Shown: in pieces, positions 39,970 through 60,435 of the stretch
Numbering within the stretch: position 1 is the first letter of the stretch
Layout of the letters: every line of letters begins with the position of its first letter
Assembly (NCBI GenBank): GCA_965222235.1
Contig: OZ244939.1
Location: forward strand, 184,585-248,584
Origin: Minisyncoccota bacterium
Lineage (GTDB): Bacteria; Patescibacteriota; Minisyncoccia; Phycocordibacterales; JABAAK01
Direction: 5' to 3'
DNA length: 64,000 nt
Notes under the pieces: generated by a model
What the model was told of the DNA's origin: nothing
Databases searched by the model: none
What the model saw: the letters and a program-made list of their open reading frames with translations, nothing else
Program-made: the position numbers and the translations under genes

Positions 39970-39971
39970 AA

Positions 39972-40655: not shown

Positions 40656-40698
40656 CGGTACCGCCAGTGTAGCACATACAATCGGGGGTAGTGGACAA

Positions 40699-41562: not shown

Positions 41563-41563
41563 G

Positions 41564-41636: not shown

Positions 41637-41690
41637 GTAGTACTGGTGTATAGTAGCATGCGGAATAATATACTACACTATATATATTCA

Positions 41691-41761
41691 GCGGGTATAG
41701 TTCAGTGGCAGAACGTAGCCTTCCCAAGGCTAAAACGAGGGTTCAATTCCCTCTACCCGCA
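41691..41761 (+). tRNA. tRNA-Gly (anticodon CCC)
   Basis: GCGGGTATAGTTCAGTGGCAGAAC...TAGCC-TTCCCAA-GGCTA...GAGGG-TTCAATT-CCCTC-TACCCGCA. A typical tRNA-Gly acceptor and D arm with a short variable loop. Confidence 0.8.
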
Positions 41762-41861
41762 CTTAAGTGTAAAAGAAGGATGGTACCCAGTTCCCCATTG
41801 ATGCCCCGAACTATAGACGGAGTGCTTATATTGCATTGTTATGCCTAATCATCAACAGGAC

Positions 41862-44144
41862 CTATTTTTGACCGGTTGAAATTATTTTATCCAGAATTTC
41901 AATCTCTCGCCGCATACTACTATCTCCAATACTATCAATTTCATCAGCAAGATACTCTCTCAACGTGGTCATGATTGAGCGGTATTCGTCTGATAATGCG
42001 AGACGATTGGATGTTCGTTCCCACCTGCCCAGTTCGGTAATAACCTCGATAACCGGTATACCTTCCTCACGGTAGCGAATGATCGGGATTTCTATTTGTG
42101 CTTCCGGAGCAAGCTCCGCTTCGTGCACAATCCAATCCTTCATTACATTCACATACCGTGACAAAACCACCCCTTTGTGAATGCCGGAGTTTGCGAAATA
42201 TTCCTCGTCGTCAGCACTGTCAAATTGAATATCTTGTTCATTTGTAAACTCTTCTCCCGAACGATTTTCATAGCTGACTCCGAGCTTCAGTTTTGCATCG
42301 TTGGTTAGCTTGCTGAGATGGAGGAGCACCAACCCACCTCTTGTTTCCTCGTTTATTCGTTCTGACGGGAAGAGGGTGCTCACTTTCATGAGTTCGCCGG
42401 TTGACAAATCTGCTTCGGGAGAGCCGTATACAGCATGAATGTCATACCCTTCTGATTCTAGGTTCAGTGTCAGGTCAAATACCAATGGAGTAACCATGTA
42501 GTCAAATCCGTCATCCATACGGTCTGTAAAGCCCTTTGCTGAGTGTACAGAGTAATAGTTTGCCCCTTTGGTCTTGGTGATTTCATTAATAAGTTCAGTA
42601 TTGAAATCAACACCTATACCAATAAAAGTGGTGTAAATGCCGTCATCAGCATTTTGCTTTGTAAGTCCAAATAAACCTTCCTCGCTGATTTGGCCCGTAT
42701 TAGGCATGGCATCAGTCAAAAAGATAATCCGGTTTTCATACTCGCTCCGATCCGAATCCTTAAATCTCTGGAAAAGTGCGGTGCCGGCCTGATACCCCGC
42801 TTCCATGTAGGTGCCGCCCGTCGGTATTATCTCAAGAATGTGGCTTTTGATTGCGTTCATATCAGTGCTTTCAACGCTGCGAAGACCCTTCGCGACATAG
42901 GCGCTACTCTCAAACAGAACCATTGCAAATCTATCTTTCAATTCAAGATGATCTAAAAGAGTTACAACCGATTCATTGGCGATTTTCATTTTTGACCGAT
43001 TATCAAACTCTTCCGCTGTACCAACGACATTCTCATGGTCTGTTCTGAATCGGTCATAGTAATAGCGATTAAACGATGAACCCATTGAACCAGATATATC
43101 AAGTACCACCACCAGGTTGAGCTTTTTTCGCCTAAAGTCATCCTGCCTGATGTCGGAGTTCAGACCGACCGATAAGAAGTGCTCCGTACTGCCGGAGAAC
43201 GGATCTCTTGAGACCGCGGTAGTGTATGAAGGACAAAATAAGTCAGTGCATGCCGCCTGAAGACCGGTATCAAATGTGTAGTCATAGAAGATACCTTCGT
43301 GAGTGATATCAGTTGGCACCGGAAGGTACCCATTGTTGATGTTTTCACGGAAGTTGTTTATATCGTTTGCTCCGCCCACCGCCAAACCGATTGTGTCAGA
43401 TTGGCTAAGCTTGACCGCCTGAAAAGAAAGACTGTCCAACGTAGCGTGCTGCACAAAACGAGATACGCCTTGCGCCATGAACTGAGTAACCATCCAAACA
43501 ACTAACAGCGGAACAAGCAATAAAATGTAGTAAAGGGAGAACAAAAACTTATTTCTGCCTGTTCGTCTGGTTATATCGTCCCCGCGATTACGAATCCAGT
43601 TGTATATGCCGCCGAAGAACAGGCATGCTATAAGCAGCAGAAAGGCAATGCCGATAGCACCGAATATCCAGAGCACAAGCGCTTCATTATTCTCAAAAAA
43701 AGCGAGCAAACTTCCGTGCAGGTTAAAAGCAAAAACCACCAAAACGACATAGAGCAGGACAACAAAACAAACAGCCGGCGCGCCCAACCAAAGGCGATGC
43801 TTTTTCCATACAGAGCTGCTATATTCACTTCGTGTCTTATCTGACCCACGCTTATGCTCTTTTGATATGAGTCCTTGGGAGAATTTGTATAACGGGAACC
43901 CAATGTAGGCAACAAAAAGAACTGCAAGTAAAACAACAATGATTTTGCCACCCAGTCCCGATTCTGCCCAAGATGTGGTTAAGCCCGATATGAGCGAAAA
44001 GCCTCCGTCATACATCCAATCGTCTACTTTACTGACACCAAAATCGTTGAATATATTTCTTATGACTGAAATAATTGATGGCAGCAATGGAATTGCTAAA
44101 AAAATACCCAGTGTTGTCCAAAAAGTTTGCTTTTTCATGATCAC
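41862..44144 (-). CDS. multi-TM membrane protein with an extracytoplasmic von Willebrand factor A (VWA) domain
   Basis: About six N-terminal TM helices. The VWA MIDAS motif DISGSMGSS is followed by the conserved downstream T and D. It is the first gene of the AT-richer island. Confidence 0.65.
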   Translation of the reverse strand: MIMKKQTFWTTLGIFLAIPLLPSIISVIRNIFNDFGVSKVDDWMYDGGFSLISGLTTSWAESGLGGKIIVVLLAVLFVAYIGFPLYKFSQGLISKEHKRGSDKTRSEYSSSVWKKHRLWLGAPAVCFVVLLYVVLVVFAFNLHGSLLAFFENNEALVLWIFGAIGIAFLLLIACLFFGGIYNWIRNRGDDITRRTGRNKFLFSLYYILLLVPLLVVWMVTQFMAQGVSRFVQHATLDSLSFQAVKLSQSDTIGLAVGGANDINNFRENINNGYLPVPTDITHEGIFYDYTFDTGLQAACTDLFCPSYTTAVSRDPFSGSTEHFLSVGLNSDIRQDDFRRKKLNLVVVLDISGSMGSSFNRYYYDRFRTDHENVVGTAEEFDNRSKMKIANESVVTLLDHLELKDRFAMVLFESSAYVAKGLRSVESTDMNAIKSHILEIIPTGGTYMEAGYQAGTALFQRFKDSDRSEYENRIIFLTDAMPNTGQISEEGLFGLTKQNADDGIYTTFIGIGVDFNTELINEITKTKGANYYSVHSAKGFTDRMDDGFDYMVTPLVFDLTLNLESEGYDIHAVYGSPEADLSTGELMKVSTLFPSERINEETRGGLVLLHLSKLTNDAKLKLGVSYENRSGEEFTNEQDIQFDSADDEEYFANSGIHKGVVLSRYVNVMKDWIVHEAELAPEAQIEIPIIRYREEGIPVIEVITELGRWERTSNRLALSDEYRSIMTTLREYLADEIDSIGDSSMRREIEILDKIISTGQK

Positions 44145-44346
44145 ATTGTGCCAAGAAAATCGGCATTTATACTACATTTTTATAATACCACCATCTTCCA
44201 ACTACGACTAAAAGAATCCACACAATGTAAAATAGCTGTATATGCTGCGGATTCCCGAGTCAAATTCCTACCGTATGAAAACGCTGCCGGCTGCCACAAC
44301 ACAAGTACGGAAACAAGACATACCGCCAACATGCTATACTGCCAGT

Positions 44347-44511
44347 ATGAAAAAAGATAATGAACATAAAGTACACGACGTACAAAAAAAGGTTCCTATC
44401 CTTAAAGCGCATGAGGTGCGCGACAAGTTCACTGATAAAGAATTTGAAGTGTTTGCTAAAGATATTCGGGATCGTTTCTTACCTGCGTTTAAAAAACTCG
44501 CTAAAGAATAG
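44347..44511 (+). CDS. candidate antitoxin (small charged protein immediately upstream of doc)
   Basis: ORF of 54 aa (MKKDNEHKVHD...) ending 3 bp before the doc start. Position and size fit a Phd-like partner. There is no sequence-family evidence. Confidence 0.4.
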   Translation: MKKDNEHKVHDVQKKVPILKAHEVRDKFTDKEFEVFAKDIRDRFLPAFKKLAKE

Positions 44512-44514
44512 TGT

Positions 44515-45006
44515 ATGGATTTTACCTATCCGCCGAAAGATGAGATGAGGGTGCGTATTGAAAAAATCAAAAATCTCTGCGAAAAAGAAAAAGATTCTTT
44601 CCTTGCAAGGATGTTCGCTTCACCCGACCCGCATGATAAGACAGTGGTGTTTGACTACATTGACGATGAATGGATAGACACGGTACACGGAAAGATTCAG
44701 TCGGTCGCTGAAAGCAGTATGTATAACGGTGACGGTACCGTTGAGCACCGAATCGCCTATATCTGCGTTGACATTAACACAGCGCATCGTTTCGGCAACG
44801 GTAACAAACGTTCAAGCCTGTTGACCTTACTTTTACTCCTCATCTACAACGATATGTGGGAGCGAATTCGCATGACAAATGATACAGACATCTACAACCT
44901 CGCCAAAAAGATCGCACGGGAGGGCTCAGCGGGGAGAGATAACAATATCATTGCTCTTCGTGAATGTCTCAAACACGGCAACTTTAAAAAATGTACCGAG
45001 ATTTAA
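44515..45006 (+). CDS. doc: Doc (death-on-curing)/Fic-fold toxin
   Basis: Doc-type Fic motif HRFGNGNKR (consensus HxFx(D/N)GNKR) in a protein of about 160 aa. Confidence 0.7.
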   Translation: MDFTYPPKDEMRVRIEKIKNLCEKEKDSFLARMFASPDPHDKTVVFDYIDDEWIDTVHGKIQSVAESSMYNGDGTVEHRIAYICVDINTAHRFGNGNKRSSLLTLLLLLIYNDMWERIRMTNDTDIYNLAKKIAREGSAGRDNNIIALRECLKHGNFKKCTEI

Positions 45007-45176
45007 TTCAATTTAAATAATCACATACCTAGCTCTACGGGTACAACGAGTCATGGACTTTGAGATTACCGAGATGTACGCGTGTCGTGTCTGTGACTAC
45101 TCTGTCTGCGTATGTAGTGTCTCATATCCCGCCGAACGCTGTGTCTGCCACGCCACAGAGCATCCTTGTTTTTTAC

Positions 45177-45644
45177 TCATCTTCCGGTGTAGGGGCGCAT
45201 TATACCGTTGTCTTCATTGATCCAGAATCTCTTGCCGGCATTCGGACCAGTGAAGTATATTCTACCGCACTCGCACTGCTCTCCCGTCTTATCCGGCTTG
45301 CAGATTCCGAATCTATCGTAGCGATAATTGTTTTCATCGTAAAGTACTGATGCAACCGACGGAATGATCGGACACACCAGCGGTTGTTTTGATGGGGCGG
45401 ATGTTTTCTCAGCTGAGATGTTTTTGAGCGCTTCCGTTACTTCCTGAAACCCCCGGTCAATTTGCTCCAGAATTTCTTCTATTGCTTTGTTGTCTTCATA
45501 CCGGGAAAATGTCTCAACAGGATTAATCGCACCGGTGCTACGCAATAGCGGGCTGTACGAGCCGGTTACAAAGCCGAGTATGAACAGCGCAAGCCCAACA
45601 ACCAACATACTGCAGATAATTTTGTGTTTTTGGCTCATATGCAC
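45177..45644 (-). CDS. hypothetical membrane-anchored protein
   Basis: N-terminal TM (IICSMLVVGLALFILGFV) and a C-terminal region with four Cys. No recognisable family. Confidence 0.35.
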   Translation of the reverse strand: MHMSQKHKIICSMLVVGLALFILGFVTGSYSPLLRSTGAINPVETFSRYEDNKAIEEILEQIDRGFQEVTEALKNISAEKTSAPSKQPLVCPIIPSVASVLYDENNYRYDRFGICKPDKTGEQCECGRIYFTGPNAGKRFWINEDNGIMRPYTGR

Positions 45645-45789
45645 CCATCATTATACTTTATATGTCATTAAGTTTCAGATTGAATTCGCACCTGAAGTGC
45701 AACAAAAAGAAAAAACACATACGCCCGCTTGGTACTATGGATATGTTACTAACCATAACCAAACAGGCGTATGTACACTCATAGTACCA

Positions 45790-46407
45790 TTACTAAGTGG
45801 TATACACCACCAGAGAATCTATGACCGGGTAAGAAGAGAGCGACCGGATCTCAAAGACAGGTTGCCGAGAAAAGGAAGGAAGAAAAGAAAGAAAACAGGA
45901 AAGAGGACAGTATGGGTCAGTACAACACGGTCAATACACAACAGACCGGAGACAGACGGGCTCTCCCGGGAGGGAGACACACTGGTGGGGCCGACAAAGA
46001 CAAGAATACTCACCCATGTGGAGAGGAAAAGCTTGTATCTTGATGCCAGAGTCATACGAGACGGTTTGTCCTACACCGTACATGAGACACTGCAAAAGAG
46101 ACCGCTGCAGGGACAAATCACCTATGACTGCGGTTCTGAATTCACCCTATGGAAATGGATAGAAGAGGATACGGGAGCGACTGTCTACTTTTGTGATCCT
46201 CATTCCCCGGGACAGCGGGGCAAGAATGAGAACACTACCGGCAGGCTCAGACGAGTCTACCCCAAGAACACTGATCTCAGCACGATAGCACAACAGAATC
46301 TCAACAATATTGTCCACCTCATGAACAACACCCCGAGGAAGTCCCTTAACTGGAAAACTCCCGCTCAGGTGTATACTGCACTTGTTGCATCTCAGTCGAG
46401 AGTCTAA
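45790..46407 (+). pseudogene. IS30-family transposase, 5'-truncated remnant (catalytic DDE domain only)
   Basis: The C-terminal 200 aa match the IS30 catalytic region (EGDTLVG ... YDCGSEF ... YFCDPHSPGQRGKNENTTGRLRRVYPKNTDL ... NNTPRKSLNWKTPAQVY). The N-terminal HTH domain is absent and no terminal inverted repeats were found. Confidence 0.65.
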
Positions 46408-46497
46408 TAAACGCAAAGGAAAACACATATCAGGAAAATATACAGCAAAATCAAGAAAAAGGAGGGCATTTCATTATTTCAACAAATTATCCGGAAT

Positions 46498-46602
46498 ATG
46501 ATGCTTTTTCCCACAATGTTTGTGTTACAATGCAATACATATGAAGGAGGGAAAAGAGTACATCCCGAGGTCGCAGGAACCAAAACCTTTCATGGAAGGA
46601 GC
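46498..46602 (+). repeat. direct repeat, left copy of the pair bracketing the RHS locus
   Basis: The 97-bp stretch at 46506-46602 is identical to 57499-57595, verified base by base. It carries ...ttgtgttacaatgcaatacat ATG AAGGAGG..., so it includes a start codon and an SD-like purine tract. This copy is followed by only a 29-codon ORF. Confidence 0.85.
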
Positions 46603-47247
46603 AAGGAAGAGGGAGGCGAAGTGGTGAGGGGAGAGCGAGGGCGAAGCGAAGCACAGCCCGAACTGACCCGAGCCCTGAGGCGATCGATGACGAAGTGAAC
46701 TCGCGAAGCAAAAGGACGGAAGGGGGAATACTGTACCTGCCGCGCCTTTCACCGACGACATTTTCTTTTTCCTTTGCCCCGTCGTGCGAGACGCAGTTCT
46801 GTCAAAGACATGATGACTGTCCACTCTCCATACCGTACCGGTACCTGGCTGTCTCGAGCACGCGGGGTGCGGGGTGCGGTTGAATTGCAAAAGAAAATGA
46901 CGACGGTGATTGGCGCGGGGAGCGGCGCGGAACACTTTGCGCGTTGCGAGCTTGCGAGTGGCGCTCCTTTGTTGGTTAAAGTGTTTACTGTGCGTACGGA
47001 GCGTATGGTTTGGTTTGGAGCTATGGGGCGAGTGGAGCGTGCGAGTTGGGAGTGTTTAAATTACACTGTTTCCGGAGTTCGTGGACAATGTAGGTTACTG
47101 TACTTTTGGGTAGTGTTTTGGAACTCTCTGAAGTTTGAGCACAATCTCCTAAACGGCACTTAGAGGTAAAAGATAGCACTATGCGATTGTTTATTCAGCT
47201 CTGCTGATCCTACTCGGCATAGTATATATTTTCTTTTAAAAACCTTT

Positions 47248-47892
47248 TCAATCCCATGGTATTTTATTTTCGTTTTCATCTACCGGGTAGTAATCTAAGA
47301 TAACACCATTTCTAAGAAAAGGAGATAGGGGCAGGTGATGGAAGTAGTACCTTTGACCTTCTTTGGGTCTGTGAGGTTGAAGGAATAAGTAGGTGTTTAG
47401 ACTGTTTTTTGCGCGTGCACTCCCACCGATATTAAATTCCGGATCCGCGATATTTATATGAGTACTCCAACCGAATGCACCCTGATTATAACTTTCAACT
47501 GTGTATATCTTTTTAATAGAAACATCCCCATAGATTAAAGAGATCATAGTATATTTTATGGCGGGGAATAAATAAAATAATAGGAAGATTCCTACAAAAA
47601 ACCCCATAAAATGGAGTGTGACTGCCATCTTGTTTGGTTTTCTGCGGGGAGAGATAAAATTGTACAACCCCTTTTTATTTCTTTTGTACAAAAAATAGTC
47701 TGTTTTGTACATTTCAAATAGAAGTAAAAGGGACACTGCACTGTAGAAGGAAAAATAAAAAATCCAGCTTGCCAACCATTCCGGTAGAAAAAATTGTGAT
47801 ATGGAAATAGTCACAAAAAAAACAGTACCGGTATATTTATAAATAGGATTTCCCTTGAAAAATTTAATGATTTTCTTTAGAATGTTCTTCAT
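47248..47892 (-). CDS. candidate immunity protein for the orphan RHS C-terminal toxin (3-TM membrane protein, paralog of 49369-50013)
   Basis: Protein of 214 aa. Its start overlaps the orphan toxin stop by 4 bp. It is roughly 50-60% identical by eye to the protein following the full-length RHS gene. Three predicted TM helices and a roughly 100-aa C-terminal soluble part. Confidence 0.55.
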   Translation of the reverse strand: MKNILKKIIKFFKGNPIYKYTGTVFFVTISISQFFLPEWLASWIFYFSFYSAVSLLLLFEMYKTDYFLYKRNKKGLYNFISPRRKPNKMAVTLHFMGFFVGIFLLFYLFPAIKYTMISLIYGDVSIKKIYTVESYNQGAFGWSTHINIADPEFNIGGSARAKNSLNTYLFLQPHRPKEGQRYYFHHLPLSPFLRNGVILDYYPVDENENKIPWD

Positions 47893-49400
47893 CTTCCTGA
47901 CTGTAACTCTGCTATTTGTCTTTTTATTCGTGTTATCTCTCTTATTAAGTAAGAGATTTTTTCTCTTTTTGCTCGCGCAGCCTGATAGGTTTCTATGTGT
48001 CTCCCTACTCCGCTATAAAAGGATTTTGGAAACGATCTTGTTGTCTCAGCAACAAAGCCTTTCAATCCTGTTGTAGCACTTACACCAAATATAGAAACGT
48101 TTCCGTTGCTAAGTTTTGTGAGTGTTGATGAGTACACTGCAGAAAAACTGTTGGAACCACTTGTAATGCCAGATATTTTTATATATTTGCCAATACCAGA
48201 AAAAACAGCACTCTCAAAAAATCTTGAACTAAGTCTTGCAAAATTAAACTCCTGATTCGGGTCCTTATGCATCTCCCATCCTTGCTCAATTGAATCTCTG
48301 ACTACACCACCAGCAGTGCCTGCAATGATAGCAGCTAGTAAAGAAGTACCTACTACCAGCCCTCCGGTAGTAGCACCTCCGGCTGTAGCTGCAATATATT
48401 TATACCCTTCAGAAACCTCACCGGCAATAACATCAGTAATCACCTGAGAACCTGCCCCTACTAATACACCAACTGTGACACCAATCGCTATATGCGCCAA
48501 CTCCCCATCCCTATCCTCATAGCGCAGAGGATTATTCATAGCATACGCATAGGTATGGTGTGCCTGAGGATTGGTAAGGTAGTCAAGAAACGATACGCCT
48601 GTTGCTGCCTCAAACGCCACCGGACCTCCTATGTATTCTATTACCGGATCTTTGGAGATAAACAGTCCTTTATTCGGATCGTAGTATCGAGCATTTCTGT
48701 AGATAAAGTCTGTTTCATCCGTTATATTCCCCGTATGGGTATAGAGTGAATCTGTTGTGGCTGTTTCCGTATGTTTTTCTCCGTAGGGGTAGTAGTCTAT
48801 TGTTTGGGTTACCGTTCCTTCTTTATTTATTCCCGCAATGGTACTTCCCAGTGCATCAGTGTAGAGATGGGTGTGCTGTGTTTTCTTGCATCGGGTGTCT
48901 TCTGTATTCGGGGATACAGTGACTGCTGTTTCATTTCCTCTTTTTACTACGATATTACCGTTTTCCGTTACCTTTGTATACTCTGTCTCCGGTGTGAGAG
49001 TGAAGAGGAGACTGGTTTGTGTGAGGAGACAAAGATCACTTACCCCGCTTACATTCTTGATACTTCCTATCACTTCTCCTTCGGCGAAGATGTGTGTTTC
49101 AATAGTACCGTTTTCAAGGGTGTAGTACGGATTTACAAAAACTGTACTACCTGTCCCCTTTGTTTCTTTCACCCGATTACCTTCATGATCATAGAGATAG
49201 GTGTAGGTGTCAGCTCCTTCGGTGATTGTTTTTACTCTGCCTTTGTAGTCCCAGGTAAGGGTGTTGGTTCCGTCTGTCAGGAAGTTTCCGTTTGTGTCAT
49301 AGGTCTGTGCCGCTGTGCCTACTGTAGTGGGCATGTGGGGGGTGGTGAAGGTTGTCTCATCGATTGTTCTACTCATCATATATCCTATTTCTATTTTCAT
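47889..49400 (-). CDS. orphan RHS C-terminal module: the last YD repeats, the RHS core (...RYYDPNKGLFISKDP...) and a diverged C-terminal toxin domain
   Basis: Residues from DETTFTTPHMPTT to NNPLRYEDRDGELAHIAIG are near-identical to the C-terminal part of the 50010-57374 protein. The last 200 aa diverge (VTVGVLVGAG... versus AAIGAAIGAL...). It has its own ATG (MKIEIGYMMSR). Expression is uncertain. Confidence 0.7.
   Translation of the reverse strand: MKIEIGYMMSRTIDETTFTTPHMPTTVGTAAQTYDTNGNFLTDGTNTLTWDYKGRVKTITEGADTYTYLYDHEGNRVKETKGTGSTVFVNPYYTLENGTIETHIFAEGEVIGSIKNVSGVSDLCLLTQTSLLFTLTPETEYTKVTENGNIVVKRGNETAVTVSPNTEDTRCKKTQHTHLYTDALGSTIAGINKEGTVTQTIDYYPYGEKHTETATTDSLYTHTGNITDETDFIYRNARYYDPNKGLFISKDPVIEYIGGPVAFEAATGVSFLDYLTNPQAHHTYAYAMNNPLRYEDRDGELAHIAIGVTVGVLVGAGSQVITDVIAGEVSEGYKYIAATAGGATTGGLVVGTSLLAAIIAGTAGGVVRDSIEQGWEMHKDPNQEFNFARLSSRFFESAVFSGIGKYIKISGITSGSNSFSAVYSSTLTKLSNGNVSIFGVSATTGLKGFVAETTRSFPKSFYSGVGRHIETYQAARAKREKISYLIREITRIKRQIAELQSGR
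48479..49362. repeat. duplicated RHS core segment, orphan copy (about 884 bp, near-identical to 50615-51498)
   Basis: The ORF track shows identical antisense ORFs at 48492 and 50628. Only a handful of mismatches were seen. The boundaries were read from where the alignment breaks: above 49362/51498 and below 48479/50615. Confidence 0.85.
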
Positions 49401-50013: not shown

Positions 50014-53000
50014 CTTCTTGATTGTAGTGCTCTGATCCTTCTTTTTAATCTTGTTATTTCTTTTCGTAAGTAAGAGATTCTTTTCCTGATGCTTTGTGTC
50101 GTTATGTTGCTGTTATGTACACGTCTCTGAGTTCCTTCAAAAAAAGATTGAGGAAGTGATCGTGTTGTTTCAGCAACAAAGCCTTTTAATCCTGTTTTAG
50201 CACTCACATTAAGTATGGAAGCAGTGCCCCTACCAACTCGTGTGAGTGTTGATGAGTATGTTGAAGAAAAACTATGAGAACCTTTTGTGACATATGGAAT
50301 TTTTACAAATTTGCCGGCACCAGAAAGAAGAGAACTTCCTATTGTCCTAAAACCAAATCTCACAAAATTAAATTTCTGATCCTCGTTTTTATGCACCTCC
50401 CAACCTTGCTCAATTAAATCTCTCGTTGCCCCACCGGCACCTCCTGCAAGAAACAAACTGGCACCTCCTGTACCCGCTGCTATTGTCCCGGTAGTAGCAC
50501 CTCCAACCCCGGCAGCAACATAGCGGTAGGGATCAGAAACCTCTCCTGCGATGACATCAGCAACTACTTGAGAACCTATTCCTGCTAGTGCACCAATCGC
50601 AGCACCAATCGCAGCACCAATCGCTATATGCGCCAACTCCCCATCCCTATCCTCATAGCGCAGAGGATTATTCATAGCATACGCATAGGTATGGTGTGCC
50701 TGAGGATTGGTAAGGTAGTCAAGAAACGATACGCCTGTTGCTGCCTCAAACGCCACCGGACCTCCTATGTATTCTATTACCGGATCTTTGGAGATAAACA
50801 GTCCTTTATTCGGATCGTAGTATCGAGCATTTCTGTAGATAAAGTCTGTTTCATCCGTTATATTCCCCGTATGGGTATAGAGTGAATCTGTTGTGGCTGT
50901 TTCCGTATGTTTTTCTCCGTAGGGGTAGTAGTCTATTGTTTGGGTTACCGTTCCTTCTTTATTTATTCCCGCAATGGTACTTCCCAGTGCATCAGTGTAG
51001 AGATGGGTGTGCTGTGTTTTCTTGCATCGGGTGTCTTCTGTATTCGGGGATACAGTGACTGCTGTTTCATTTCCTCTTTTTACTACGATATTACCGTTTT
51101 CCGTTACCTTTGTATACTCTGTCTCCGGTGTGAGAGTGAAGAGGAGACTGGTTTGTGTGAGGAGACAAAGATCACTTACCCCGCTTACATTCTTGATACT
51201 TCCTATCACTTCTCCTTCGGCGAAGATGTGTGTTTCAATAGTACCGTTTTCAAGGGTGTAGTACGGATTTACAAAAACTGTATTATCTGTCCCCTTTGTT
51301 TCTTTCACCCGATTACCTTCATGATCATAGAGATAGGTGTAGGTGTCAGCTCCTTCGGTGATTGTTTTTACTCTGCCTTTGTAGTCCCAGGTAAGGGTGT
51401 TGGTTCCGTCTGTCAGGAAGTTTCCGTTTGTGTCATAGGTCTGTGCCGCTGTGCCTACTGTAGTGGGCATGTGGGGGGTAGTGAAGGTTGTCTCATCGGA
51501 GGTAAGATAAGTATAGTTGCCGACACCCGTTTTTGAGGTTATATTCCCTATCGCGTTGTATGTATAGCTTCTTGTGTAATTGTTTGATCCGTTATTGGTT
51601 ACTGTTGCACTAATGAGACGATTCATATTGTCATACGTGTATGCTTTGTTTACCGCTGTACCCGATGTGTTAGTATCAATCGTAGCAGTTATGTTACTGT
51701 CTCTGTCGTAGGTGTACTCAAGTTTTCTCGCAACAGCGATACTATTCCCCTTCACTTCCCTTATTGTCAGTCTTCCCGATGAATCGTATGTGTTTGTTTC
51801 TTTTGATCCGTTTGATCCGGTTTTTGTGTCAACCAGACCGAATACGTTGTAGGTAAGGGTTGTAAAGGGAGTATCGCTCACGGATACCGAAGAAACTCTG
51901 CCATTTTTTCCGTAGATGTTTTTAATAACAGTGCTGTTCGGAAGTGTTGTGGTGACTATGCCATTCTGTAAATTATGTGTATAGGTTGTTGTGTATGCGG
52001 TGCCGCTGATTGTTTTCACCTCTTCTTTCAGATTTCCTTCTTTATCGTATTTATAGGTCGCATTAACACTATCCGCTGAGGTAACAGAACAGATGCTTCC
52101 TTTTCCGTTCTCACAGGAATCGTATGTATACTGATAATCCGTTCCTGTAACAGATGCTCTGTCCTCCGTTAATGCCCTGCCGAGTGCATCATAGGTATAT
52201 GCTATAGCGGTTCCGTCCCGCTTTGTTTTTGATGTCAGGTACTCCTTGTTATACGCAAATTGCAGTGTCTTGTATGTCGTATCACTCGTGTGATGTAAAT
52301 CCTCAATGCTTGTGGTTCGTCCTATCATGTCATACTGTATACCACGGACATTATTCAACGCATCCTTCACTTTAATAATGCGATCCAATGGATCGTAGGT
52401 ATAGGTGGTGGTATGGGTGGAGGCACCGTCTATTTCATGCACCCTGTGCAGACGCCCGTAGCTGTCGTGTTCCAAACGTTTTTTCCTGTCCTCCGCCGAG
52501 GTAATTTCAACCGTATGCCCGTCATATGATGAAGTTGTTGTTCCGACCGGATTAACCACAGATACTATTCTGTTCAGCCCGTCATAGGTTGAGGAAGTGT
52601 TTGACGTGCCGGTTGGTGTTGTTGCATATGAACTTGTTGATGACTGGTACGGCATGTATTTTTTCTCAATCAGTCCCCGCTCGGTGTATGTTACATCCTC
52701 AGTATCAAACTTCGTGCCGTTAGATGTTTTTGTCTGTATTGTTCTGCCCAGACCGTCCATGTATGTCTGTCCGATTCTGGTTGCTGATCCGAAGTGCTCC
52801 CTCCTTTGCACTGAGTACGGACGATTTGTAAAGTTATACGAATAATCCGCCACTGTCTCTTTTGTACTTGCCCGTTTTTTCTTTATCGCCGTTATTCTGT
52901 CAATTCCGTCAAATTCGTAGTATATCTCAAAACCGTTCGGGTCTGTTATTTTTGTTACCTCTCCTGATGTTTCGTCGTATTCATACTGTGTGACATGTGA

Positions 53001-56000
53001 GAGTGGGTTGGTTTCCTGTGTCAGACGCAGTGAGTTGGTGTCATACGTATAGGTTGTTGTGTTGTTCAGGGAATCATTTTCCGTCAGCACCCGCCCTCTC
53101 GTGTTGTATGTGTAGGTTCTTTTTTGCTTTGTCGTGCCGTCTATCTTTCTCTTTTTTGTGAGCATATTCCCATTTGAGTCGTAGGTATACTCATTTTCAA
53201 CAATAATCACATCCGATGCATTTTTTATCGTTTCCTCGGACAGCAATGAAACTATATAATTGGTCGTGTCCGGCGTTTTGTAGGTGTACACTACCTTGCG
53301 CAATACGGCGGTTCCGCTCTTTTTTGTCTCAGTGAGCACATTACCGTATGTGTCGTAAGTGTATTCCGTGCTGTTTGAGTAGTCATCACCGAATGTTACA
53401 TTGCCGCTGCCGTATACCGTCTTTTTCTCTTTTGTCAGGTACATGTATGTGCTGTTTGTGCCGTTGCTGGTTTCCCCGTATGTGTATTCAATCTTTTCAA
53501 GAAGAATGTTCGACTCGCCTTCATTTACTGCCGCTTGGTATATTTCTTTCTTGTACGGAAGTCCTATTTTTGCATACGAGTCAGTCGGTTCCGCATTGGT
53601 GCTATTCTGCCCATTTCCCTGGTGGTAGTATATTTTTTCTTTTCTGTTTCCCCGTGTTCTCTCCACTGTTTCAAAACCGGCGAACTTTTTGTCAGACGGA
53701 CCGTTAAAGTAGTAATACCCGCCTGTGTACCCGAGAGTTTCCGTGTTGTCCGTGGCATATGTATCCGTATATGCAATTGAGGAGACGATGCGGAGGGGAA
53801 ACGGCACCCTGTTGGTTGTATCATGCACTCCGGCACCGGTGTACGATATATCAAAACTGCCGCCGTATTTGGTAGTGATTGTGTCTAATTCAAACGTGTT
53901 GTCAGCAATGAAGTATTTGTAGTCATATCCAAAATTTCTTCTCCCCACTCTTTGCTTTTTATAGTACACATCATTTATTCCGTCGCCGTTTACATCTATC
54001 ATGGCATTTACATATATATTTCCGTTTGAGTTTGATCCGGCATGTTCTAATATACCTGCATTCCTGAGAGCGTCGGTATATTTCTTACTGTATTGATACC
54101 CATCAATACCCTTACTCAAATAGACTCGGTATCCGTAGTTATGTGTTTTGGTTATATCTTTGATATTTCGATCAATATCTCTATCGTTATAAATATCGGT
54201 GACAATGAGGTCATACATACCATCCGTGTTTATATCCTTCCATGATCCGGCATATCTGTCAGTACTGAAGTTATTGTTTCCGTCGGCAAAATAAATTGTG
54301 GGGTAATTCAAGTAATCAATGTCCGCCGACCAGCCGAACCCATTATTGATTTTAGATCTACTTATATCAGCAAGACCGTCACCGTTGTAGTCAATAAGGA
54401 AGTTCGGAACTCGTAACCCGTAATAGGGACCGTGATAGGGATCCCCCCTGTTGTAGTACAGAATATACGGTACTGATATGGTGCTTGACTGTACCGGATT
54501 AAATCCGTCGGCGTTTAGAAACACAAGTGTTGTAGTGTAATCCCTCCATCCGCCACCACGAGTATGCCTATCATACCTCTTTGGAAATACATCCAACGTC
54601 CCATCTCCGTTTATATCACCCAGACCGTCAGCCCATGAGGAATGAAAGTCCCTGTTAATAGAGGTTCTGCTGAAGGTGTTGAGTGAGCCATTATTCTTGT
54701 ATATATAACTGTTAGTACTGCACCTCTTACATCTTCTTGTTATGACCTGAAGAAAATCAGGGTAATAATCGCCGTTCATATCAAACTTACCCTGAACGCT
54801 ATCAAATGTCGGAAACATATCGATTGCGGAGTTAAAACCGTTACCATTGTTCACCTGAGTATCATTTGTCGCCCCCAAGGAAACAACATCAGGCATACCA
54901 TCCCTTGTCGCATCTGCAAGACCTGACGGACCGGTAGATCCATAACTGCTGTTTTCCGTGTATGAAATAGTGTCAGTGTATCCAAACGTTGTTTTCGGTT
55001 CGGTTGTCCAATTGCCGTCTGCATCCTTGCCGTATTTGTACAACGCTTTGATAACATACGTGTATTTCAATTCATTGACAAGTTCAAGATCCTGTTTGTA
55101 TGAAAATAGTTTTTCCGTACCTTTGTAAAAGTCAATGCCGTTTATTATGTACTTCGTTTTTACCGGAAATCCTGTATTGAAAAGTTTTGTCTTATCATTT
55201 CTCCCCTGTTTGGTGAATTGGAGCGAATACACATATGATCCTCCGGAAGTATTTACATACTCTATCTTCTTCGGGTATATCTGCCCGTGGTCTTTGGTGT
55301 ATGTGTACTCTATCGTGTTGCCATTTGTATCTTCTATCTTTTCAAGCATCCATTTGAACGTTTCTGTTTCCCACTGTACCGTGCCGTCCTGACGCGCCTG
55401 CAGAGTTTCACCGAAGTAATACTTCGTACCGACGGTATCAGTTACTACCCAATAATCACCAATTTTCTCGTATTTTCTGAATGCTCCTTTTTCTGTCCTC
55501 GGCTTATACATCTCCGACTGTGTGGTACTCTTTGTTGTTGTTTCACTTATTTTGTATGTGTATACCTCACCCCCATCGTACCACCGGTTTCGGCGACTGT
55601 CAAACCTGGTAACTCCCGCAGCGATATATCCTCCGTCAAGAGATATTGATCGCGCAGAAAAATCACCTGTGATGTCGGGGGGAATTACTTTTCTCTCAAA
55701 TCCCCAGGTGCCGTCACTTTTCTCTTTATACACATAAAACATATACTTTCTATGTTCTGTATCCCTTGCGCCCACTGTTAAGGTGTCTCCGTCGAGCAAA
55801 ACACCCCATGAACCGAAAACAATGTTCGAGTGGCTGTCTGACGCTTTCAGTTTCACCGGATTACCCCATGTTCCGTCTGATTCTCTCGTGTATACATACA
55901 CCGCACCAGAGGATTCAATACCGGTACTCTCCCCACTCATACCGATTGCCAAGGTGTTTCCGTTGATTGCAACAGATGTGCCGAATGGGGTTTTTCCTAT

Positions 56001-57374
56001 TATGACTTGATTTTCATATTTTGTAGTATTGCCGGGCTTGCTTGCATTACCCCACCCTCCGTTCACATCCTCTTCGTATATAAATACTGCCGGACCGTTG
56101 CCTGTAGTAACTACAAGACGATTTCCTGCTAATGAAATACGATCTCCGAACTCTCCTGAAGTGTTGCGATTCCCATATCTGGCGCTCGGATACAGTGACT
56201 CTTTTTTTATCCACGAACCCGCATCATTCCGTTTATATACCTCAATATACCACCATGACTGTCTATCCCTCGCCTTCACCGCCAGTATGTCATCATCAAG
56301 GTATACGGTATCAGCAGACCGAACCTGAATTTCCGTTCTGTTTCCCCACACATCATTCGTCCCCCTTTTATACACAAATACCTTGTTACTTGAAACCGTG
56401 ACAGCCAAATAATCTCCTGATAGGGAAATATTTTCTCCGAAACTGGAATATGTGGCATCCGACAATCGTTGTAAAAAAGCCCACGAGCCGCTACTCTGCC
56501 TCTTGTATATATACACCACACCGTCTGCTCCATTTCTTTCGTTGTCGTCTAAGTCGTATGTAGGGGCACTCATAGCAAGGTAGTCCCCGTTTAGTGAAAC
56601 CCTTTGTCCGAACCGGCTGCTTGCTTTCCAATCGGTCGGCACAATTTTCTGTTTACTACCGATGGCATACTCCTTTACGGGATATGATGTAGACGATATA
56701 CTTGCCGTATTTTGTTTTACTATTTCACCGTCCAGTGATGAAATATAATCATCGTTTGTATATATTTTATTTGAACCCTTTTTTGTTGATCGCTCTATAT
56801 ATGGTATATCCACTTCCCAACCGTACCCGAATATGCCGTTATTCTTTTTGTTGGAACTCTTGAAAACAAGATTGTGCTGAGGAGTAAACCCGTTTCTCCC
56901 TTCGGGGACGGTAAGAGAGTATGAATAGGTGAGTGATCCGTCTAAATTGTCTATCAATGGGTGAATAACATTCCCTGATGATTTTATTGTTCCCGTTGTC
57001 CCGGATGAAGAGCCCGATGCCCCTGATGCCCCATCTTCAGTATCCTGATTATCAACATAATCGTCAGGCAACTCAAAGGACGGGTGAATGGGGCCCCCGC
57101 TATCAACAGAACCCTGAGCGGGAGGTTCCGGCAAATCACCGATTCCGTCATCCTCATCCGGCGATACGGTACCGCTCGGTCCGTCCTCTATCTGCCCTGA
57201 CGGTCCCGAAGTTTCACCCTGTGCATAAGAAACCAACGGGTTAAGGACAAGGAGCAGTGAAAGTGTAAAAGAAAGGAGTACCGATGATATTGAATGATAT
57301 CTCTTATTGCGAAACGGTACAATAGTATCAAGTGAACTATACGAACTGGTTACCATATTAAAGAAACGGTACAT
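50010..57374 (-). CDS. giant RHS/YD-repeat polymorphic toxin, a fused TcB/TcC-like cocoon protein: signal peptide, SpvB-like N-terminal domain, FG-GAP/VCBS beta-propeller repeats, YD repeats, RHS core and a variable C-terminal toxin domain
   Basis: Start set at MYRFFNMVTSS, 57374. The ORF-track extension to 57731 runs through the divergent promoter region and is judged artefactual. Signal peptide ISSVLLSFTLSLLLVLNPLVSYAQG. SpvB-like block GSLTYSYSLTVPEGRNGFTPQHNLVFKSS...GYGWEVDIPYIERST. DxNGDGxxD repeats (DINGDGTLDV, DYNGDGLADI, DVNGDGINDV). Dozens of YD repeats (YTYDTNGN, YEYDETSG, YTYDALGR...). RHS core RYYDPNKGLFISKDP ... NNPLRYEDRDGE, followed by a 208-aa C-terminal domain rich in glycine-zipper motifs. 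Confidence 0.85.
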   Translation of the reverse strand: MYRFFNMVTSSYSSLDTIVPFRNKRYHSISSVLLSFTLSLLLVLNPLVSYAQGETSGPSGQIEDGPSGTVSPDEDDGIGDLPEPPAQGSVDSGGPIHPSFELPDDYVDNQDTEDGASGASGSSSGTTGTIKSSGNVIHPLIDNLDGSLTYSYSLTVPEGRNGFTPQHNLVFKSSNKKNNGIFGYGWEVDIPYIERSTKKGSNKIYTNDDYISSLDGEIVKQNTASISSTSYPVKEYAIGSKQKIVPTDWKASSRFGQRVSLNGDYLAMSAPTYDLDDNERNGADGVVYIYKRQSSGSWAFLQRLSDATYSSFGENISLSGDYLAVTVSSNKVFVYKRGTNDVWGNRTEIQVRSADTVYLDDDILAVKARDRQSWWYIEVYKRNDAGSWIKKESLYPSARYGNRNTSGEFGDRISLAGNRLVVTTGNGPAVFIYEEDVNGGWGNASKPGNTTKYENQVIIGKTPFGTSVAINGNTLAIGMSGESTGIESSGAVYVYTRESDGTWGNPVKLKASDSHSNIVFGSWGVLLDGDTLTVGARDTEHRKYMFYVYKEKSDGTWGFERKVIPPDITGDFSARSISLDGGYIAAGVTRFDSRRNRWYDGGEVYTYKISETTTKSTTQSEMYKPRTEKGAFRKYEKIGDYWVVTDTVGTKYYFGETLQARQDGTVQWETETFKWMLEKIEDTNGNTIEYTYTKDHGQIYPKKIEYVNTSGGSYVYSLQFTKQGRNDKTKLFNTGFPVKTKYIINGIDFYKGTEKLFSYKQDLELVNELKYTYVIKALYKYGKDADGNWTTEPKTTFGYTDTISYTENSSYGSTGPSGLADATRDGMPDVVSLGATNDTQVNNGNGFNSAIDMFPTFDSVQGKFDMNGDYYPDFLQVITRRCKRCSTNSYIYKNNGSLNTFSRTSINRDFHSSWADGLGDINGDGTLDVFPKRYDRHTRGGGWRDYTTTLVFLNADGFNPVQSSTISVPYILYYNRGDPYHGPYYGLRVPNFLIDYNGDGLADISRSKINNGFGWSADIDYLNYPTIYFADGNNNFSTDRYAGSWKDINTDGMYDLIVTDIYNDRDIDRNIKDITKTHNYGYRVYLSKGIDGYQYSKKYTDALRNAGILEHAGSNSNGNIYVNAMIDVNGDGINDVYYKKQRVGRRNFGYDYKYFIADNTFELDTITTKYGGSFDISYTGAGVHDTTNRVPFPLRIVSSIAYTDTYATDNTETLGYTGGYYYFNGPSDKKFAGFETVERTRGNRKEKIYYHQGNGQNSTNAEPTDSYAKIGLPYKKEIYQAAVNEGESNILLEKIEYTYGETSNGTNSTYMYLTKEKKTVYGSGNVTFGDDYSNSTEYTYDTYGNVLTETKKSGTAVLRKVVYTYKTPDTTNYIVSLLSEETIKNASDVIIVENEYTYDSNGNMLTKKRKIDGTTKQKRTYTYNTRGRVLTENDSLNNTTTYTYDTNSLRLTQETNPLSHVTQYEYDETSGEVTKITDPNGFEIYYEFDGIDRITAIKKKRASTKETVADYSYNFTNRPYSVQRREHFGSATRIGQTYMDGLGRTIQTKTSNGTKFDTEDVTYTERGLIEKKYMPYQSSTSSYATTPTGTSNTSSTYDGLNRIVSVVNPVGTTTSSYDGHTVEITSAEDRKKRLEHDSYGRLHRVHEIDGASTHTTTYTYDPLDRIIKVKDALNNVRGIQYDMIGRTTSIEDLHHTSDTTYKTLQFAYNKEYLTSKTKRDGTAIAYTYDALGRALTEDRASVTGTDYQYTYDSCENGKGSICSVTSADSVNATYKYDKEGNLKEEVKTISGTAYTTTYTHNLQNGIVTTTLPNSTVIKNIYGKNGRVSSVSVSDTPFTTLTYNVFGLVDTKTGSNGSKETNTYDSSGRLTIREVKGNSIAVARKLEYTYDRDSNITATIDTNTSGTAVNKAYTYDNMNRLISATVTNNGSNNYTRSYTYNAIGNITSKTGVGNYTYLTSDETTFTTPHMPTTVGTAAQTYDTNGNFLTDGTNTLTWDYKGRVKTITEGADTYTYLYDHEGNRVKETKGTDNTVFVNPYYTLENGTIETHIFAEGEVIGSIKNVSGVSDLCLLTQTSLLFTLTPETEYTKVTENGNIVVKRGNETAVTVSPNTEDTRCKKTQHTHLYTDALGSTIAGINKEGTVTQTIDYYPYGEKHTETATTDSLYTHTGNITDETDFIYRNARYYDPNKGLFISKDPVIEYIGGPVAFEAATGVSFLDYLTNPQAHHTYAYAMNNPLRYEDRDGELAHIAIGAAIGAAIGALAGIGSQVVADVIAGEVSDPYRYVAAGVGGATTGTIAAGTGGASLFLAGGAGGATRDLIEQGWEVHKNEDQKFNFVRFGFRTIGSSLLSGAGKFVKIPYVTKGSHSFSSTYSSTLTRVGRGTASILNVSAKTGLKGFVAETTRSLPQSFFEGTQRRVHNSNITTQSIRKRISYLRKEITRLKRRIRALQSRR
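50615..51498. repeat. duplicated RHS core segment, copy inside the full-length gene (about 884 bp)
   Basis: See 48479-49362. The offset between the copies is 2136 bp. Confidence 0.85.
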
Positions 57375-57488
57375 ACATGCAAACACTAATATTACTATGA
57401 TACCTTTTAAATTAACCCGCGACTCACTTTCCCACTTTGGAGGCGCCGACCCGGCGCGGTTGCGCCGCATATGATGCGGAGAAAAGAC

Positions 57489-57595
57489 ATGATGTTCCTT
57501 TTCCCACAATGTTTGTGTTACAATGCAATACATATGAAGGAGGGAAAAGAGTACATCCCGAGGTCGCAGGAACCAAAACCTTTCATGGAAGGAGC
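57489..57595 (+). repeat. direct repeat, right copy, including the promoter/RBS/start of the 57533 gene
   Basis: The 97-bp stretch at 57499-57595 is identical to 46506-46602. It lies in the divergent intergenic region between the RHS gene on the minus strand and the 57533 gene on the plus strand. Confidence 0.85.
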
Positions 57596-58094
57596 GGCGT
57601 ATAGGCCTGGGGAAATCATACATTTTGACCAGGCAACCAAAGAGGAGGTTGTGGAGATTTTGAACAATCAAGATTTGTCTCAAAACGAGCGGGAGAAACG
57701 TGTTTTCACATATCTTAAAAATCATCCGCAAGATCAGCTAGTTATTGAGGGACAGATAGATGAAGTAACCTACGACGGCATTGAGAACCTGCCCCTTCCG
57801 GAGAAATATGTACTATTCTCGCATCTAATGCGAAAGTGGGATGAAAATAAATCCGTAAAAATGGAGTTAAGGAAAACCGTTGAAACCATATTTAAACGGG
57901 AGGATATCAGTGAGACAGAACAGGATGCCCTCATATCCAAGTATGTGCAAGAACAAGGTTTATCGGCAACAGATACCGATCTTCTTATACAGAAAATTGT
58001 AACCCGAGGAACCGGCAGTTTGAGCAGAAAAGAAAATGTCGCTCTTTACACAGCCCTTGAAGAGAATTGGAAACAACAGCATCACCCGCACTAA
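57533..58094 (+). CDS. hypothetical soluble protein, AT-rich, divergently transcribed from the RHS gene
   Basis: Start chosen at ATG AAG GAG GGA (MKEGKEYIPRSQ...). No recognisable family. AT-rich composition like the rest of the island. Confidence 0.4.
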
Positions 58095-58126
58095 TCCGCG
58101 GTATCATACACATTCTATAGGAATAT

Positions 58127-60417: not shown

Positions 60418-60435
60418 AGATTCAGTATACCCCCT

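Follow-up and report, generated by a model that had tools for sequence, protein, structure and literature searches.

A mosaic low-GC locus beside tRNA-Gly(CCC) in a Parcubacteria chromosome carries a putative RHS toxin/immunity cassette that was probably exchanged recently

Introduction

Bacteria of the Candidate Phyla Radiation (CPR; Patescibacteria) have tiny genomes and live on other cells. Here, a 64-kb stretch of a Parcubacteria chromosome was analysed (the window, in whose numbering all coordinates are given). We were particularly interested in a low-GC region at 41763-58100, which begins beside a pair of tRNA genes and contains an array encoding a putative RHS/YD polymorphic toxin, an orphan toxin fragment and two immunity-type membrane proteins. 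The region was best explained, with a probability of roughly 75%, as a mosaic accessory locus of foreign composition that was put together in at least two steps, rather than as a single integrase-driven island at a tRNA gene. An example of an Rhs/YD protein exported by the Sec pathway from a monoderm cell is WapA of Bacillus subtilis.

Rhs/YD polymorphic toxin loci with orphan arrays of rhs C-terminal domain (CT) and immunity genes have been described (Poole et al., 2011; PMC3150448). The present locus resembles them in its long RHS-repeat protein, in which an RHS-associated core is followed by a variable CT, in a small putative immunity gene directly after it, and in a downstream orphan that shares only core-end homology (~860 nt) and carries a diverged CT/immunity pair. 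The foreign composition, with a GC content that is lower still in the CT/immunity part, is also common to both. On the other hand, the host here is a CPR bacterium with an 831-kb genome, and the window contains no type VI secretion system (T6SS), PAAR or VgrG context. At its N-terminus the protein resembles Tc toxins (SpvB and FG-GAP) and carries a Sec signal, the core ends in YEDRDGEL instead of DPxGL, the CT belongs to an unannotated family, and 97-nt repeats surround the array. Export of the RHS carrier by Sec is expected, because the cell has neither an outer membrane nor a T6SS.

The BC components of Tc toxins (TcB-TcC, with SpvB, a beta-propeller and an RHS cocoon) have been surveyed (PMC7861908) and share with our protein the order of SpvB, FG-GAP propeller, RHS shell and C-terminal toxin in one chain. 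The nearest homologues of the main RHS protein have the same SpvB/FG-GAP/RHS architecture, and one of them is named as a Paceibacterota SpvB/TcaC protein. However, the immunity gene and orphan cassette found here are typical of antibacterial Rhs systems and not of insecticidal Tc toxins. Matches to Pfam, NCBIfam, PADLOC or PHROGs were sought for the main open reading frames (ORFs) and for most of the smaller ones, and no TcA-like partner was present among the scanned ORFs of the window.

Within the CPR, a secreted RHS-type toxin has been reported for the Saccharibacteria member T. rhizospherense (PMC6031116). That protein is likewise an RHS/YD polymorphic toxin of ~2,500 aa whose gene, also in a CPR genome, lies beside an immunity gene. 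It differs in having PA14 and galactose-binding domains, and its description mentions neither an orphan array nor flanking repeats nor evidence of transfer. In the literature searched here, little was found on CPR weapons against competitors or hosts, with one anecdotal report of an RHS toxin, and the terms toxin, horizontal gene transfer and mobile genetic do not occur in a perspective on Patescibacteria published in 2024.

Islands and integrative elements linked to tRNA genes form a further comparison. The likeness lies in the tRNA adjacency, the atypical composition, the accessory cargo and a transposase remnant. The locus differs from them in that no integrase and no tRNA-derived attachment (att) repeat were found, in its composite origin, and in that its only direct repeats are internal and derived from the 5′ region of a protein gene. 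A low-GC region adjacent to a tRNA gene thus need not be a tRNA-integrated island. Both the Rhs type of toxin locus and the island concept are already known; the interest of the present case is in the CPR host, the recent exchange, the unexplained 97-nt duplication and the permuted ends of the insert. A complete Parcubacteria genome devotes ~1.3% of its DNA to a predicted Sec-exported RHS toxin and a spare toxin/immunity cassette, and the toxin gene has moved very recently between two distinct Parcubacteria lineages of one sample. The insertion scar, a pair of perfect 97-nt repeats, is clean and datable. Taken together, these features make the locus a concrete and testable case of putative weapon exchange among ultrasmall bacteria.

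Composition and borders of the low-GC region

The initial annotation had described an AT-rich stretch of about 16 kb that starts at a divergent tRNA-Thr/tRNA-Gly pair and returns to core-like composition at about 58.1 kb, and the measured values agreed with this description. Composition was not uniform across the window: GC content was 0.433 at 41763-58100, compared with 0.523 in the left flank, 0.562 in the right flank and 0.528 in the whole non-island sequence. The 16 1-kb bins inside the region had a mean of 0.433 (maximum 0.502) and the 48 bins outside a mean of 0.527 (minimum 0.456; Mann-Whitney p = 6e-9). The GC content at third codon positions (GC3) was 0.33-0.53 in every island gene versus 0.53-0.69 in 20 core genes, a large FG-GAP surface protein included. 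In GC-normalised tetranucleotide usage, chunks outside the region correlated with the remainder of the window at 0.83-0.94 and chunks inside it at 0.27-0.63. A further 21 kb of the same chromosome (L169) had a GC content of 0.543.

In a fine profile, GC content fell directly past tRNA-Gly, from 41763 onwards, and recovered at 58.1-58.3 kb, where a gene for a spondin-domain protein starts. The two tRNA genes, tRNA-Thr(CGT) (41563-41636, minus strand) and tRNA-Gly(CCC) (41691-41762, plus strand), were both detected by ARAGORN and Rfam; they are divergent with 54 nt between them, and tRNA-Gly(CCC) forms the left edge of the low-GC region. At the right edge, the Spondin_N-domain gene (58149-59092, plus strand; Pfam Spond_N 1e-32; start as in contig L081, described below) is the first gene of normal composition (GC 0.56). 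The genes left of the tRNA pair are all on the minus strand and comprise prfB, ftsE, ftsX and others, so that the minus-strand housekeeping genes of the initial annotation were recovered for the left flank; the large minus-strand ORFs there are probably RNA polymerase subunits. The gene content listed earlier for the region was also found again, namely a VWA protein, a Doc-like pair, a small membrane protein, an IS30 remnant and RHS toxin/immunity genes with an orphan cassette. These results support that the region is compositionally foreign and accessory.

An insert bracketed by 97-nt direct repeats

Sharp structural boundaries were found only inside the low-GC region, as two 97-nt repeats around the RHS array. 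The repeats are perfect (100% in the repeat search), direct and 10,993 nt apart. The left copy (46506-46602, plus strand; also present in contig L082) consists of the upstream sequence and first codons of a small ORF and is followed by unrelated GC-rich sequence. The right copy (57499-57595, plus strand) is continuous with the intact small ORF (57534-58094). Because the ORF is intact at the right copy and not at the left one, the insert between them (46603-57498, 10,896 bp, GC 0.429) is bracketed by a duplication of recipient sequence. The 97-nt sequence was absent from the 17.6 kb retrieved of contig L165, which carries a near-identical RHS gene (see below), indicating that it is target-derived and was not part of the incoming DNA.

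The flanks of the repeats showed homology only in a gapped left-side extension of ~10 nt that includes ATGATG. The left junction reads ...CCGGAAT-ATGATG-C-TTTTTCCCACAATG, the right junction GCGGAGAAAAGAC-ATGATG-TTCC-TTTTCCCACAATG, and the corresponding junction in L165 GCGGAGAAAAGAC-ATGATA-TTCC-TCAGGCGATG, so that the join bears a 6-nt ATGATG microhomology. The right end of the DNA common with L165 is the upstream region of the RHS gene (57375-57498), as delimited by the L165 alignment and junction reading. No sigma-70-type promoter was recognised in the 97-nt repeat by the scan criteria; an extended -10-like sequence, TGTTACAAT, was read by eye. Two palindromes, GCGCCG-ACC-CGGCGC and CCGCAT-ATG-ATGCGG, were also observed in the RHS upstream region at 57443-57479, just inside the right-repeat junction.

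The low GC content does not end with the insert. It continues past the right repeat into ORF 57534-58094, which indicates at least two acquisition layers, and the low-GC zone extends beyond the RHS block on both sides, implying that the RHS cassette entered an islet that was already in place.

The RHS gene in a second Parcubacteria lineage

The closest homologue of the main RHS protein among 5.8 billion proteins was P0001, with 98% identity, encoded on contig L165 (ctg251913_3x_l; 78 kb at 3x coverage) from the same sample. The alignment with L165 extends over 6.6 kb (window 57499-50871) at 98.5%, the nucleotides of the RHS gene being 98.5-98.6% identical, and the homology ends exactly at window position 57499, which is the border of the right 97-nt repeat that faces the insert. 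The 89 mismatches included 86 in coding sequence, 45 of them at third positions; 41 were synonymous and 45 nonsynonymous, and the indels included two in-frame 3-nt changes. The third-position bias, the synonymous/nonsynonymous split and the in-frame indels indicate real diverged alleles and not read errors.

The genes upstream of the RHS gene in L165 (GC 0.37-0.50) are unrelated to those of the window and comprise an amidase, tRNA-Met, a slipin, a PdaC-like protein, a Kelch protein and others; the ORF upstream of the L165 RHS gene had no similarity to the small ORF at 57534-58094. A slipin ortholog was compared between L165 and the 831-kb genome of the window and showed 64% protein and 68.7% nucleotide identity. 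Named relatives of the L165 slipin belong to Patescibacteria/Parcubacteria. A relative of L165 (L171) is a circular 829-kb genome with a GC content of 0.444, in which the gene order around slipin was not conserved. Judged from these sequences, L165 is taken to represent a different Parcubacteria lineage of 42-44% GC in the same sample. The difference between 98.6% for the RHS gene and 64%/68.7% for slipin indicates a recent horizontal transfer of the RHS gene. Moreover, in GC content (0.435) and GC3 (0.43) the RHS gene agrees with the L165 lineage rather than with the window genome. This suggests in which direction the gene moved, and the donor was probably the L165 lineage or a relative of it.

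At 16597-17578 of L165, the RHS frame is cut after ...TDSLY and followed by DNA of 0.53-0.66 GC. From its translation, this end was read as a Gfo/Idh/MocA-type oxidoreductase with a twin-arginine translocation (TAT) signal, which is atypical for a CPR genome of 0.42 GC.

The RHS toxin/immunity array

The main RHS gene (50010-57374, minus strand) encodes a protein of 2454 aa with a signal peptide, SpvB, an FG-GAP propeller, an RHS/YD shell, the YEDRDGEL motif and a 205-aa C-terminal domain, CT1. Pfam matches were RHS_repeat (4.8e-23), FG-GAP_2 (1.1e-20) and SpvB (5.9e-15), and sequence matches in the PDB were Rhs 7Q97 (1.5e-11), SpvB 6P0X and Tse5 8CP6. The signal peptide is of the Sec type, ...LLLVLNPLVSYA/QGE. 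The core ends in ...RYYDPNKGLFISKDP...NNPLRYEDRDGEL, after which CT1 begins; Gly and Ala each make up 20% of the first 95 residues of CT1. The core/CT junction reads NPLRYEDRDGEL, and the corresponding motif is YEDRNGEL in P0002, a 40%-identical full-length RHS homologue; neither is the canonical DPxGL (PxxxxDPxGL). The P0002 gene (L166 3841-12229, on a contig of 0.39 GC) adjoins a DNA methylase and a HATPase/Hypoth_Ymh gene and has no GC-rich segment upstream.

The stop of the main RHS gene is overlapped by imm1 (49369-50013, minus strand, GC 0.32), directly after which lies an orphan RHS fragment (47889-49400, minus strand). The orphan contains an RHS-associated core (TIGR03696 Rhs_assc_core, 1.9e-13), the sequence of which is also present in the main gene, and a variant toxin domain, CT2. 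Its stop is overlapped in the same way by imm2 (47248-47892, minus strand, GC 0.35). Both immunity-type genes encode membrane proteins of 214 aa with 2-3 hydrophobic segments, as judged by hydropathy; imm2 is a paralogue of imm1 with 50-80% nucleotide identity, and imm1 had no family match in Pfam, PADLOC or NCBIfam. The main gene and the orphan were ~100% identical over about 860 nt (51500-50640 versus 49364-48504). Past this core stretch, identity was 50-80% through the CT and immunity genes and ended just beyond each immunity stop, with a unit length of 2136 nt. In sequence terms, the array looks like a textbook Rhs/YD orphan arrangement.

CT1 belongs to no Pfam family. An exhaustive HMMER search gave 124 cluster representatives in proteins of 130-2700 aa, nearly all with the domain at or near the C-terminus, and among ten carriers scanned, six were RHS proteins, which differed in their N-terminal modules (DUF6443, DUF6531, beta-helix). 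The presence of the same CT family with YEDRNGEL in P0002, together with the varied carriers, indicates that CT1 behaves as a modular polymorphic-toxin domain. We suspect that the putative toxin CT1 is membrane-active.

A diverged GC-rich segment at the left end of the insert

At its left side, the insert carries a non-coding segment of 645 nt (46603-47247) with a GC content of 0.52 and a 30-nt inverted repeat (46740-46769 / 46889-46918). Over ~560 nt it is colinear with a stretch directly upstream of the RHS gene in L165 (L165 9352-9889), and the two segments face the same way with respect to the RHS gene. The local alignment score was 66.5, compared with a mean of 25.8 (sd 5.8, maximum 50) for block shuffles (z = 7), whereas the opposite orientation gave z = -1.1.

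The order in L165 is GC-rich segment, 82-nt linker, RHS upstream region and RHS gene. On the RHS strand of the window, it is repeat, RHS upstream region, RHS gene, imm1, orphan, imm2, GC-rich segment and repeat. The two ends of the insert are therefore neighbouring points in L165, which suggests either a circle opened at the linker or a donor with tandem modules that each carried a segment. No similarity was found between the 82-nt linker and the 97-nt repeat.

A third variant of the segment was found in contig L163, which is identical to the window through CT2 and imm2 into the segment and diverges from 46961 leftwards (L163 1541-1654); this variant is partly like the GC-rich segment of L165. 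The segment is thus linked to RHS modules in three contexts and is highly diverged, and from these alignments it looks like a recombination-prone junction. In Rfam, neither the GC-rich segment of the window nor that of L165 had a match at E <= 1. RNA folding gave z = -4.2 for L165 and -1.6 for the window, a mixed result by which a structured RNA is not established.

Host genome and support for the assembly

The window belongs to ena:ERZ25072670:ctg256451_97x_c, a circular contig of 831,337 bp at ~97x, in which the VWA protein is found with 100% identity. Homologues of RF2 (prfB), FtsE and FtsX were found in Patescibacteria only, with the best match in a metagenome-assembled genome labelled Ca. 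Kaiserbacteria (69%, 76% and 67% identity, respectively). The host is therefore a member of the Parcubacteria (CPR/Patescibacteria) with a complete chromosome. Because the contig is circular at ~97x, the window comes from a complete CPR chromosome and a draft artefact is unlikely.

Independent contigs covered most of the joins. L082, from another sample, matches window 33325-47176 at 99.96% and joins prfB, the VWA and Doc genes, IS30, the left repeat and the GC-rich segment. L163, a Logan contig from another run, matches 48508-46921 at 99.5% and joins CT2, imm2 and the GC-rich segment. Two further Logan contigs were identical to the window: L164 (50644-49314, 100%) joins CT1 and imm1, and L081 (57566-63353, 100%) runs from the small ORF as far as uvrC. 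The end of L081 at 57566 is where a k=31 graph would be expected to break, since the repeat ends at 57595. Exact-protein look-ups mostly returned the same strain (L081, L082, L163, L164, L170); no record was found of the VWA protein from its GTG start or of the small ORF when started at ATG 57534.

The nearest genome found, L001, has an RF2 with 69% identity (2.9 kb upstream of the gene available) and an orthologous tRNA-Gly(CCC), ~91% identical by eye, ~800 nt upstream of prfB. In the 2 kb visible past this tRNA gene, unrelated genes of normal GC were present. Metagenome contigs scanned with RF2 gave nothing above 56% identity, and the island and right-flank proteins had no match by tblastn in 80 genome-contig loci.

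Genes of the islet around the insert

The islet around the insert comprises ~5.3 kb with the VWA protein, the Doc pair, a small membrane protein, a 5′-truncated IS30 transposase and the small ORF. The VWA-domain membrane protein (41862-44138, minus strand, 758 aa, GC 0.44, GC3 0.46; Pfam VWA 5e-10) has five N-terminal hydrophobic segments by hydropathy. The full-length homologues closest to it (72% and 61% identity) have other gene neighbours and are found on contigs of 0.38-0.43 GC, and judged by these contexts the islet genes look imported as well. The C-terminal two-thirds of the VWA protein are 55-58% identical to proteins of DPANN archaea (Woesearchaeota, Nanoarchaeota, Altiarchaeota, Micrarchaeota) and, at the same level, of CPR bacteria (Moranbacteria, Uhrbacteria); the family is strongly conserved and common to ultrasmall symbionts of both domains.

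A Doc/Fic-family toxin of 163 aa is predicted at 44515-45006 (plus strand). It matched TIGR01550 DOC_P1 at 1.7e-7 with 31.4 bits, under the cutoff of 38.65, as well as a PHROG Doc-like toxin (2.5e-7) and Pfam Fic (2.7e-4), and its translation contains HRFGNGNKR, a Fic-type motif (HxFx(D/N)(A/G)NKR). The small ORF before it (44242-44511, plus strand, 89 aa or possibly shorter) ends 4 nt before the Doc gene and is a candidate antitoxin by position only. It matched no family in Pfam, NCBIfam, PADLOC or PHROGs, so that no Phd/YefM-family antitoxin was found upstream of Doc. PADLOC gave no defence-system match beyond a marginal Doc hit.

The hypothetical membrane protein of the initial annotation is a small membrane-anchored, Cys-containing protein of 153 aa, read from its translation (45177-45638, minus strand), with no family match in PHROG and further profile scans. 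Next to it lies the catalytic part, i.e., the C-terminal two-thirds, of an IS30-family transposase (45697-46407, plus strand). It matched NCBIfam IS30 at 2.4e-38 (132 bits, profile positions 72-267 of 267) and a PHROG transposase at 3.4e-40 (profile positions 124-340 of 344). The remnant thus lacks ~70-120 N-terminal residues, and where these would be encoded lies the minus-strand gene. Among the inverted repeats that the repeat search reported, none flanks the fragment. The last low-GC gene is the small acidic ORF at 57534-58094 (plus strand), called and translated as 186 aa from ATG 57534 with an uncertain start (57471-57585) and a GC content of 0.43; it had no significant family match in Pfam, PHROG and further profile scans.

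Origin of the locus

We propose a history in two layers. A low-GC islet with the VWA gene, Doc and its partner ORF, the membrane protein, a decayed IS30 and the small ORF would have been present downstream of tRNA-Gly(CCC). The 10,896-bp RHS cassette would then have been inserted in the 5′ region of the small ORF, leaving perfect 97-nt repeats of recipient sequence on both sides. The exchange of the RHS gene with the co-occurring low-GC Parcubacteria lineage was very recent. The 2454-aa RHS protein is predicted to be exported by Sec, and its SpvB/FG-GAP/RHS part may form a shell of the Tc-BC/Rhs type around a putative toxin, the ~205-aa Gly/Ala-rich CT1, from which the downstream multi-pass membrane protein would protect the producer. 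The orphan core with CT2 and imm2 may be a silent alternative that could take the place of CT1/imm1 if the ~860-nt identical core stretches recombined. The 97-nt repeats should likewise be able to recombine with each other and so release the cassette as a 10,993-bp circle.

Several points weigh against this two-layer history and its functional side. The GC-rich segment is only ~60-65% identical to that of L165, with many indels, versus 98.6% for the RHS gene, which implies that the transferred unit and its history were not simple. A target duplication of 97 nt has no standard mechanism, and no recombinase is encoded in the insert. The end of L165 after 16596 is probably chimeric or else a true truncation, and a contig at 3x is imperfectly reliable. 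The junction at 57498/57499, between the RHS upstream region and the right repeat, is covered by the 97x circular assembly alone. No close-relative genome lacking the region was found in RF2 scans of genome and metagenome contigs. As for the toxin, YEDRDGEL stands in place of the canonical DPxGL at the junction, and CT1 had no family match and a predicted structure with a mean pLDDT (per-residue model confidence) of 38 from a 3-sequence alignment.

The initial annotation had proposed a horizontally acquired island at tRNA-Gly, and this idea was only partly upheld: the composition is foreign and the largest part, at least, is of horizontal origin, while an integrase, a tRNA-derived repeat and a single unit were not found. 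tRNA genes are classic integration sites, the composition drop begins directly after the tRNA gene, and the decayed IS30 shows that mobility genes do erode at the locus, as would be needed for a single classical island integrated at the 3′ end of tRNA-Gly(CCC) with its integrase and distal att repeat since decayed. However, no integrase or site-specific recombinase was found among the scanned island ORFs, in which the truncated IS30 DDE transposase is the sole mobility gene, and the island holds no unassigned stretch of 900 nt or more and thus no room for an integrase. The initial annotation had noted no obvious repeat of the tRNA-Gly 3′ end near 58.1 kb, and a mismatch-tolerant search of the window with 15-, 18- and 25-nt probes and up to 3 mismatches likewise gave no convincing second copy; the sole extra match, a 15-mer with 3 mismatches at 46624, was taken as chance. 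Moreover, the 97-nt repeats and the L165 junction indicate that the biggest block, whose own borders lie 4.7 kb from the tRNA, arrived separately, and the nearest VWA homologues are not linked to tRNA genes. A single tRNA-integrated island is thus quite improbable. It is even harder to credit that the region is native, with a low GC content that comes from amino-acid composition or from relaxed selection on fast-evolving surface and conflict genes. RHS proteins are indeed rich in Tyr, Asn and Thr, and large surface proteins are encoded in variable regions of CPR genomes, an example being the 7162-aa protein partly encoded in L169. But GC3 is depressed as well, the native FG-GAP surface protein of the window has a GC3 of 0.61, and for the RHS block a native origin is refuted by 98.6% nucleotide identity to a gene in a genome whose slipin ortholog is at 68.7%.

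An assembly error, in which RHS DNA of another organism was joined in through the 97-nt repeat, would account for the near-identical RHS gene in another organism of the same sample and for the right inner junction being in no independent contig retrieved. This is very unlikely in view of the circular contig at 97x and the 1.4% difference between the window allele and that of L165, which is thus not the source of the sequence. L082 and L163 also independently join IS30, the left repeat, the GC-rich segment, imm2 and CT2, the break position of L081 fits two copies of the repeat in that sample, and the 97-nt sequence is absent from the retrieved part of L165. Insertion of a non-autonomous integrative circle by a Campbell-type single crossover, with a recombinase acting in trans or RecA acting on 97-nt homology, is a rather unlikely alternative for how the block arrived. 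It would explain the perfect direct repeats, and the ends of the block, i.e., the GC-rich segment and the RHS upstream region, are 82 nt apart in L165 as in a circular permutation; the third GC-rich variant joined to an identical CT2-imm2 suggests a recombination hotspot. Natural competence, documented in cultivated Saccharibacteria (PMC10633639), also speaks for it, and by analogy DNA uptake is a plausible transfer route. On the other hand, the linker of L165 is unrelated to the 97-nt repeat and provides no shared att core, no recombinase is nearby, tandem RHS modules in the donor explain the permutation equally, and divergence in the GC-rich segment far exceeds that in the RHS gene. A wider version, which we regard as doubtful, is that the 11-kb RHS toxin/immunity array is a self-contained mobile cassette that has no recombinase of its own and circulates among co-occurring CPR lineages by DNA uptake, with a circular form, a target duplication of ~100 nt and the conserved but fast-diverging GC-rich segment as the recombination or junction site.

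Flanking genes and the rest of the genome

The 3′ end of tRNA-Thr(CGT), at 41563, abuts the ATG of prfB at 41562, with no spacer and no ribosome-binding site. The same adjacency of tRNA-Thr(CGT) and prfB was seen in most of the 18 Parcubacteria loci scanned, with gaps of a few to some tens of nt. RF2 itself (40699-41562, minus strand) is short, with 287 aa that cover profile positions 117-350 of 353; it is without ~70 N-terminal residues, and its gene has no frameshift site.

Further to the left, a protein of 837 aa that combines FG-GAP repeats with a peptidoglycan-binding domain at its C-terminus (36468-38981, minus strand, GC3 0.61, i.e., native) is encoded directly downstream of ftsEX in the same strand run. 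A bacterial class A RNase P RNA was found at 28529-28860 (minus strand) as a full-length match of 142.8 bits; the Rfam scan of the window returned only this RNA and the two tRNAs.

On the right side, 59089-61506 (minus strand), beside uvrC, encodes a MurE-type ligase (442 aa, without ~60-95 N-terminal profile positions) and then a FemAB/GNAT-like protein. The two are possibly a peptidoglycan side-chain module in a CPR genome. Elsewhere in the 831-kb genome, L169 1-7001 (record 371034-378034) contains the end of the 7162-aa protein, which has FG-GAP, Big and P_proprotein domains, and the genome encodes other very large surface proteins besides it.

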